NCBI GenBank assembly: GCA_951406725.2
Contig: OX597842.1
Coordinates: forward strand, 33,790,001-33,854,000
DNA length: 64,000 bases
Origin: Octopus vulgaris
Taxonomy: Eukaryota
Direction: 5' to 3'
The stretch's first letter is position 1, and each line of letters begins with the position of its first letter. Positions 12,345 through 13,380 of this stretch are shown in pieces. The notes below the pieces were generated by a model. That model did not search any database, was not told the DNA's origin, and saw nothing but the letters and a program-made list of their open reading frames with translations. Made by a program: the position numbers and the translations under genes.

Positions 12345-12613
12345 GATTAGAGCAGGTTCCCGGACGAGTTATGTTTAATAAAAAAATAAATATATTGTTT
12401 ACCTGGGTTTTAACATTATCCCCTTCGAAATAGCTACCTTGCGTGGCGATACCTGCCACTTTTGGAATGTGGTCCGGACGCCGTTTTCCGTAAGCGAGTC
12501 GAAGACCTTCTGCGATTCGCTCAGGATCTTGATGACGATGTTGAAACGGTGACCTTTGGGTTGAATTTTCTTCTTGGAGAAGAGATTGAAGACTGCAGAG
12601 GCTAAATCTGGTG
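12345..12613 (-). mobile_element. mariner transposase remnant, C-terminus
   Basis: PDLASAVFNLFSKKKIQPKGHRF...ESQKVFDSLTEN...FQKWQ and IATQGSYFEGDN, the typical mariner C-terminus. Confidence 0.85.
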
Positions 12614-13148
12614 GCAGAATCGTTAGCATGCCGGGCGAAATGCTTAGCGGTATTTCGTCTGCCACTACGTTCTGAGTTCAAATTCCGCCCAGGTCGACTT
12701 TGCCTTTCATCCTTTCGGGGTCGATAAATTAAGTACCAGTTACGCACTTAATCCGTTTGTCTGTCCTTGTTTGTTCCCTCTGTGTTTAGCCCCTTGTGGG
12801 TAGTAAAGAAATAGGTATTTCGTTTCCCGTTACGTTCTGAGTACAAATTCTGCCGAGGTCGACTTTTATCCTTTCGGGTTCGATATATTAACTACAAGTT
12901 ACGCACTGGGGTCGATGTAATCGACTTAATCCCTTTGTCTGTCCTTGTTTGTCCTCTCTGTGTTTAGCCCCTTGTAGATAGTCATGAAATAGGTACTTCG
13001 TCTGCCATTACGTTCTGAGTTCAAATTCCGCCGAGGTCGACTTTGCCTTTCATCCTTTCGGGATCGATAAATTAAGTACCAGTTACGCACTGGGGTCGAT
13101 ATAATCGACTGAATCCATTTGTCTGTCCTTGTGGACAGTAAAGAAATA
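12614..13148 (+). mobile_element. Head-to-tail Meta-SINE trimer inserted in the mariner
   Basis: One head, three bodies and tails; junctions gaaata|ggta at 12813/12814 and 12991/12992; 17-bp flanking duplication at 12597-12613 and 13149-13165. Confidence 0.9.
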
Positions 13149-13380
13149 AGATGCTGAATCTGGTGAATAGGGCAGATGCAGGAGCGATACCATGTTGTTT
13201 TCGGTGAGGAGATCTTGGAGTCAAAGTACATTGTCCTCGTGAAGAACCCAATCCTCCAAGCTCCACAGATCCGGTTGCTTTCACCGAATGTCCTCAAACG
13301 CTTCACAACATCGAACTAGGACTCTCGTTTGACGGTCTGACCCTGGGGGATGAATTCTCGATGCACAATATCGTATTTTC
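13149..13380 (-). mobile_element. mariner transposase remnant, catalytic core
   Basis: IVHREFIPQGQTV...KRLR...WVLHEDN...PYSPDSAS across frameshifts; continuous with 12345-12613. Confidence 0.85.

Follow-up and report, generated by a model that had tools for sequence, protein, structure and literature searches.

Target-specific non-LTR elements are known to have rDNA, snRNA genes, microsatellites and other transposons as their targets, R2 being directed to rDNA with a different class of endonuclease. In the sections of Kojima (2015; PMC4494074) used here, Tx1L is cited as targeting Tx1D, Keno U2, and Kibi and Koshi microsatellites, and the Tx1-Mar LINEs of crocodilians are described together with the SINE SINEU-3, their target being an unrelated mariner element and their tandem copies being separated by target site duplications (TSDs). 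In the blood clam, arrays of the form TSD1-(SINE)n-TSD1 have internal units without the tail end, and the consulted portion of the report proposes unequal recombination for them (PMC11481361). In R2, annealing of the cDNA to the upstream target yields "anneal" 5' junctions, i.e., a seamless join without duplication, according to the relevant passages of PMC11331408.

The system found in Octopus vulgaris resembles Tx1-Mar and SINEU-3, as far as the same sections describe them, in that a LINE and a SINE have a common preference for a single site within another repeat, that the TSDs measure about 16 bp, that SINE insertions can be tandem and that some SINE families are less specific; unlike them, the octopus target is the head of the passenger SINE itself, and the arrays are seamless and one-headed (PMC4494074). 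With Tx1L, Keno, Kibi and Koshi, as cited there, it has in common an L1-group element with a fixed target in a multicopy sequence, an octopus sister family ending in ATCT repeats, but here the target is a SINE that carries the LINE's own tail. As in the blood clam arrays, one complete head is combined with repeated head-truncated units inside a single TSD; unlike those arrays as presented in the consulted portion, the octopus internal units end at the exact tail, more than 21,000 fixed junctions can be found, and a LINE occurs at the same site (PMC11481361). Squamate SINE-derived satellites are likewise tandem repeats of part of a SINE with unit numbers varying between related loci, but neither a fixed insertion site nor a targeting LINE belongs to their description in the part of PMC10702118 drawn on. 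R2 annealing, as outlined in PMC11331408, would be a model for the single head of the octopus SINE. With the passenger's own head as target and a seamless join, the octopus system differs from these relatives, and in a literature search whose coverage stopped short of most subscription journals and of Repbase, no report was found of a passenger SINE that is targeted by its own LINE and homes seamlessly into itself.

SINE Architecture and Classification

The SINE is 233 nt long; its 49-nt head part is followed by a body and by a tail with the end GAAATA. Two main tail variants can be distinguished, a young G-type (GGGTAGTAAAG) and an A-type (GGGCAATAAAG), while a sister family, tail-2, has head and body in common with the G-type SINE and a different tail, ending in (ATT)n. 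The element is short, non-coding and present in high copy number (58,121 exact G-type tails), its TSDs are 11-24 bp long, and its 3' tail is common to a LINE, the last ~45 nt aligning with two L1-group LINE families, all of which characterize a SINE. In the head, box-like TGGCAGAA..TTAG and GAGTTCAAATTCC can be recognized by eye; ARAGORN returned 0 genes and Rfam no tRNA match. In the consensus head, a 13-bp hairpin is predicted that has the insertion site discussed below (position 50) at its tip, a placement of possible but not necessary relevance to insertion, and the fold of the full-length SINE RNA is not unusual (z -0.5).

An earlier interpretation made from the letters of the window (hereafter the sequence-only reading) had called the element a Meta-SINE, a name that is not supported. 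The SINE body is unlike the BivaMeta/BivaMD rows in part 1 of the supplement of PMC4824008, compared by eye, a Meta motif gave 0 matches in the 64-kb window at 3 mismatches, and membership of the MetaSINE superfamily (Nishihara, 2016) was rejected since, by the available test, the central Meta domain is absent. The octopus SINEs OR1 and OR2 (Ohshima and Okada, 1994, with OK) have been classed by others as CORE-SINEs.

Other arrangements of the same sequences can also be observed. Full-length copies often begin directly after a tail-2 (ATT)n tail (TTA^AGGCGG), forming other head-to-tail clusters, e.g., at 55200-55670 of the window. A 121-bp satellite consisting of SINE positions 98-163 and 55 unrelated bases forms several arrays (C29, L141-L180), and at L038 (C1, 0.568 Mb) an element of ~290 bp with long terminal inverted repeats lies inside the tail of an A-type copy.

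The Trimer and Related Loci in the Window

In the window, i.e., the whole 64-kb stretch of DNA that was analyzed, the tail GAAATA is followed by GGTA(T/C)TT at 12813/4, 12991/2, 55670/1 and, on the minus strand, 41816/5, and at each of these four junctions the next unit begins at consensus position 50, with no second head. At 63356/5, the tail adjoins GGTAAG inside a family-A head. All five junctions are present as the sequence-only reading had listed them. GGTA follows 5 of the 7 tail ends in the window, the exceptions being 9156 and 13148.

The first two junctions belong to a plus-strand trimer enclosed by AGAGGCTAAATCTGGTG (12597-12613), the last 2 nt of which overlap the SINE head, and AGATGCTGAATCTGGTG (13149-13165), which together make a 17-bp duplication with 2 mismatches. 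Unit 1 (12612-12813) has a 5'-truncated head, from consensus position 13, a body with a 19-nt deletion and a G-type tail, and differs from the family consensus by 5 substitutions besides the deletion. Unit 2 (12814-12991), also with a G-type tail, begins at position 50 (GGTATTTC) and is the most diverged (13 substitutions and a 6-nt deletion). The terminal unit 3 (12992-13148) begins at position 50 as well and has 6 substitutions in its aligned part, its internally deleted tail ending in GGACAGTAAAGAAATA, then AGAT. Both the imperfect duplication and the unequal divergence of the units thus stand as previously described. Unit 3 is likely the founder copy: this terminal, A-like unit would have landed in a transposase fragment at an AGA site, and the two G units would have joined it later. 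However, since unit 2 is the most diverged, the trimer alone cannot order its units. The junction variant of unit 2 has just 2 occurrences genome-wide and is therefore not a dispersed master.

On the minus strand, the flanks of the trimer translate into ...LLHLPYSPDSA / PDLASAVFNLFSKKKIQPKGHRF, with decayed transposase-like fragments after (12399-12596) and before (13166-13315) the SPDLA-like motif. By this motif, which the sequence-only reading had described as a mariner SPDLA motif split by the duplication, the host element would be a mariner; Pfam returned no transposase family in the two short host pieces.

Regarding the other copies, the dimer at 55438-55838 (plus strand) joins a full-head G-type unit (55438-55670) at position 50 to a tail-2-type unit, and at 41958-41650 (minus strand) a 5'-truncated G-type unit (41958-41816) is joined in the same way to a tail-2 unit (41815-41650). 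The family-A head mentioned above adjoins the tail of a full-length G-type monomer (63356-63588, minus strand). Around this monomer, a ~290-bp direct duplication (63055-63355 and 63590-63965; 84-92% identical) contains most of the family-A head and represents either a very long TSD or a later duplication. The A-type (CAATAAAG) copy at 8965-9156 (plus strand) is followed by TATT, not GGTA. At 27064-27170 (minus strand) lies a 3'-end remnant of an L1-group LINE of the ATCT-microsatellite family, the last ~45 nt of which are common to the SINE tail. At 40598-41480 (minus strand), an array with a 169-bp period contains five tail-2 fragments, each from consensus position 98 after an (ATT)n run.

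Genome-Wide Junctions and Site Preference

The feature is confirmed as real and genome-wide. Tabulating the sequence downstream of exact genomic tails, as had been suggested for all copies, gives 33,877 followed by GGTA among 58,121 exact G-type tails, against a GGTA background of 0.25-0.29% per position, and 21,280 exact matches to a G-type tail followed by GGTATTTYRT, which corresponds to SINE positions 50-59. After A-type tails, GGTA is found in 1,028 of 14,950 cases. The anticipated enrichment of GGTA at the targets of monomers is also apparent: among 32,840 tails without GGTATTT downstream, 8,596 (26%), some few of which are mutated self-junctions, still start with GGTA, versus the same 0.25-0.29% background.

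In a 1.25-Mb sample partly picked from GGTA-followed matches (592 units in 405 elements, with arrays up to 11 units long), 163 of 187 junctions go exactly from the tail end to position 50. Contrary to the idea of a single fixed target, insertion also occurs at position 17 (AGAAAC), which is used mainly by the sister A-type tail and has 2,055 exact cases genome-wide. An enlarged sample, enriched by targeted searches, contains 274 junctions at position 50 and 43 at position 17 out of 334. Upstream of the position-17 junctions, the C221 tail is found in 39 of 43; upstream of those at position 50, the TG (G-type) variant is found in 228 of 289, and a position-50 unit follows a tail-2/3 unit in 1 of 299 cases. 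The family-A head was considered as another true target and set aside, with only 32 exact cases that are compatible with a general GGTA preference.

In read assemblies of public runs from organism E (X12, X13), joins from the A-type tail to position 17 rank high among the loose ends (135 and 141 contigs), and tail-1 is covered at low depth compared with the head, which is not so in organisms C and D. This weakly suggests that the wave of G-type insertion at position 50 was lineage-restricted.

Target DNA and Two-Headed Insertions

With the first 7 nt kept out of the comparison, TSDs could be recovered at 46 of 87 loci where GGTA follows the tail, the other 41 having been left out for want of a head or of a TSD at a score of 5 or more; the mode is 16 bp and the range 12-24 bp. 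In the upstream TSD copy at these 46 loci, G is found in 40, G in 43, T in 44 and A in 42, which indicates that GGTA(T) belongs to the target DNA and was there before insertion. Whole arrays are enclosed by one TSD. An asymmetry between TSD copies (17 versus 5) was discarded as a test of RNA-templated GGTA, because the loci had been picked by their downstream copy and no overwriting is expected under annealing.

A two-headed pattern, in which a host head and a duplication precede a second head, has 48 exact matches genome-wide. Among 14 distinct loci read (L316-L320 were left unread in this count), 11 present a host head, a duplication of 13-19 nt, a full new copy, and then GGTATTT with the rest of the host. 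At L301, L314 (a host deletion) and L315, a private variant of the host is duplicated on both sides of the new copy. These loci are ordinary insertions into a pre-existing SINE copy at position 49/50. They are rare, with 2 against 162 seamless arrays in the sample, and a preference for GGTAT might by itself produce as many, since SINE sites make up 17 of the 588 GGTAT sites in the C29 stretch. At sites of nested insertion in L305/L306, L310 and L315-L320, the 65-bp head unit is tandemly repeated, giving three or more heads, and from loci with at least three heads it follows that this repeat is unstable. In read assemblies of public runs, each run giving 178,000-736,000 repeat contigs, an array is nowhere spanned by a single piece; the terminal tail and 3' flank of L076 are present in the runs of two other organisms. 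Among the public runs listed as carrying the sequence there is none of RNA, which says nothing about expression.

The Candidate Partner LINE

Tail-like ends without a SINE body lead to two L1-group LINE families. The first, ending in ATCT repeats, has an intact frame (L171) whose RVT_1 and zf-RVT domains correspond to the reverse transcriptase (RT) and C-terminal zinc-binding domain of L1-group ORF2 and whose best PDB matches are L1 ORF2p. The second (L374), 45-63% identical to its intact relative L171, has a tail that aligns to the SINE tail and ends in ...GGGCAATAAAGAAATT, immediately upstream of GGTATTTCG of a tail-2 SINE. Among the best 20 of 40 scored copies of the L374 family, the 3' flanks of which were fetched, 20 of 20 end at SINE position 50; 19 of these continue into SINE sequence and one is readable for GGTATT alone. 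The SINE hosts belong to different subfamilies, and of the 8 exact LINE-type tails, 7 continue into GGTATT. The L1-group LINE and the G-type SINE, which have the same tail, both end at position 49/50 of older SINE copies.

The Tx1-like partner LINE that the sequence-only reading had proposed thus has a counterpart. More than 20% of flanks in one repeat mark target specificity in the sections of PMC4494074 used, and in the L374 family all 20 fetched copies end in the SINE. A named Tx1 reference was absent among the 120 listed homologs; the closest named homolog of a neighboring LINE protein, among the matches listed, comes from Argonauta. Full-length database relatives carry PF03372, the copies analyzed here being 5'-truncated. 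L374 is an L1-group LINE and Tx1-like, a candidate member of the Tx1 clade. No SINE-head sequence is found in the available part of the LINE, which excludes its 5' part, and the site preference thus appears independent of head homology. The family is small and older, its 40 scored copies being 86-93% identical and its exact tails numbering 8, and its tail is nearer to the A-type than to the G-type SINE tail; the LINE behind the G-type expansion may be another, related one.

Other LINEs deserve mention. The most abundant intact LINE in a genome RVT_1 search was rejected as partner, having no tail in common with the SINE. This abundant young LINE, with an intact EN-RT frame of ~949 aa and an (ATT)n end, dominates the RT matches of the genome and is presumably CR1-like, by its motifs. 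At L171:3400-6060 and in its neighbors (C29, 33.957-33.965 Mb), young (99% identical), 5'-truncated L1-group LINE copies of the sister family with the same tail end are piled up inside ATCT microsatellites, two of them as a tandem pair and one in inverted orientation. At L128 and L134 (C1, 5.52 and 8.14 Mb, minus strand), another element is present as a pair of paralogues whose 3' end resembles the tail and stops just upstream of SINE position 50, with GG and GGG arrays inserted within the element; only 2 exact copies of this end were found.

Age of the Units, Origin of the Head and Array Growth

The age comparison that had been called for used clean non-CpG sites at which none of the classes varies, and an array had to offer at least 50 such alignable sites to be included. 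Terminal tail-2 units differ at 176 of 3712 sites (4.7%) and first units at 115 of 3693 (3.1%); of 55 arrays, 33 have a terminal unit older than unit 1 and 15 a younger one (p = 3e-4), the two divergences being uncorrelated (rho 0.06). For tail-3-type terminals, 6.6% compares with 2.4% for first units (9 versus 2 of 11 arrays, p = 0.054). Older and uncorrelated tail-2/3 terminals fit pre-existing hosts and, with the duplicated host variants of the two-headed loci, uphold the idea that insertion occurs into older copies at GCTTAGC^GGTATTTC. No age difference is seen, however, when the last unit is of A- or G-type.

The 5' head goes with unit 1 (rho 0.45), not with the last unit (rho 0.007). Of 52 arrays with a tail-2 terminal, 12 carry the combination G45+C50, as against 0 of 28 young tail-2 monomers (p = 0.006) and 1 of 123 tail-2/3 monomers; among G monomers it is present in 33 of 102. 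The single head of an array thus comes mostly from the incoming copy and carries incoming-type alleles. Head position 21 was dropped as a host marker, as young tail-2 monomers also carry A (24 of 28).

In a minority of dimers, first and last units share rare alleles at positions 59-100 (29 of 175, ~8 expected). Adjacent G units share 135 of 352 rare alleles where ~19 are expected, and two paralogous loci with the same flank are GG and GGG, which together indicate that local duplication adds units. Many units in long arrays resemble local duplicates, and an 11-unit array is nearly identical throughout. The unit-1 haplotypes of dimers span many subfamily combinations, and a single fixed multimer master is rejected. 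Neither such a master nor a lack of GGTA enrichment among monomers, which had been named beforehand as grounds against self-insertion, was found.

Probable Self-Insertion and Alternative Explanations

The best explanation, which we regard as probable, is that the G-type SINE inserts into itself by means of the site-preferring enzyme of a LINE lineage at GC^GGTATTTC, after which the heads pair and one remains. The LINE lineage would supply endonuclease and RT, the site specificity residing in the endonuclease; this Tx1-like machinery would nick at GC^GGTATTTC, and the SINE RNA would be copied starting from GAAAUA. The 3' end of the new cDNA, being the same head as the host head upstream, would anneal to it and replace it, as in R2; alternatively, the second head would be lost by later collapse of a 65-bp head duplication. 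Long arrays would be extended further by local duplication. Simple nesting alone, as originally envisaged, falls short here, as it leaves unexplained a single head that is mostly incoming-derived, and many units of long arrays look like local duplicates. With only 2 two-headed cases against 162 seamless ones, the majority class depends on the proposed head-pairing step. Also counting against the best model are the mostly incoming head, which template jumping predicts equally well, the lack of an age difference for A- and G-type terminals, the small size, greater age and A-like tail of the LINE family, and the trimer of the window, in which the greatest divergence is that of the middle unit and not of the last.

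Such jumping could build arrays in one event, with RT stopping at position 50, where the RNA is cut or pauses in the hairpin loop, and passing to the 3' end of a G-type RNA, or with RNAs ligated beforehand. While the association of the head with unit 1, the predicted hairpin tip and the ratio of seamless to two-headed loci all agree with this, it leaves unexplained why GGTA is in the target before insertion, why host variants are duplicated around two-headed insertions, why LINE copies end at that very base and why terminal units are older and uncorrelated, and the full-length RNA fold is ordinary (z -0.5). A one-event origin seems improbable. Little more credit can be given to the proposal that many multimeric source loci are retrotransposed whole and altered in length by unequal exchange, self-insertion being a rare founding event. 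Single TSDs around whole arrays, the excess of shared rare alleles between adjacent G units, the GG and GGG paralogues, the near-identical units of the 11-unit array and the unequal recombination proposed for similarly formed clam arrays (PMC11481361, consulted portion) are all in keeping with it. However, dimer unit-1 haplotypes fall into many subfamily combinations, tail-2/3 units at the end of arrays exceed unit 1 in age and show no correlation with it, the private junction variant of the trimer occurs only twice in the genome, and the 20 of 20 fetched LINE insertions mean that the site is actively targeted.

It can also be hypothesized that transcripts reading through past the tail into GGUAUUU... 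base-pair with the nicked genomic target, so that specificity would be mainly that of RNA rather than of the endonuclease and every self-insertion would yield more self-targeting RNA. Near-identical tails do favor different sites, each being its own self-junction (228 of 289 for G-type, 39 of 43 for C221), the preference declines gradually beyond GGTA, and co-transcription is cited as strengthening R2 targeting in the sections of Kojima (2015; PMC4494074) used. Against this, specificity is much higher in the LINE than in the SINE (20 of 20 versus roughly 40%), which fits a protein-encoded preference, and different LINE lineages acting at different times would likewise give two sites; the whole reading is unlikely, if worth keeping in mind.

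Implications

Beyond self-insertion as such, a closed host-parasite loop can be envisaged, in which a Tx1-like LINE targets the head of its passenger SINE and the SINE homes into itself, the head being repaired by homology; this wider reading is possible, although we hold it with some doubt. If it were true, one working promoter would be kept while a unit is added, and each copy would make new landing sites, possibly also read-through RNAs pairing with such sites. The target site would have shifted at least once, from position 17 to position 50, along with the tail subfamily, and a direct retrotransposition route from dispersed to tandem repeats would exist at tens of thousands of loci.

With regard to the self-insertion model, its consequences, should it hold, extend from enzymology to annotation. 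The arrays would document, in nature and on the scale of a genome, how homology guides the joining of 5' ends, which is the step of LINE integration understood least, and would provide a mechanism for SINE-derived tandem arrays. The LINE lineage would possess an APE endonuclease of high site specificity, open to in vitro assay, and the annotation and dating of cephalopod repeats will, in that case, mis-handle arrays that are chimeric in head, body and tail.
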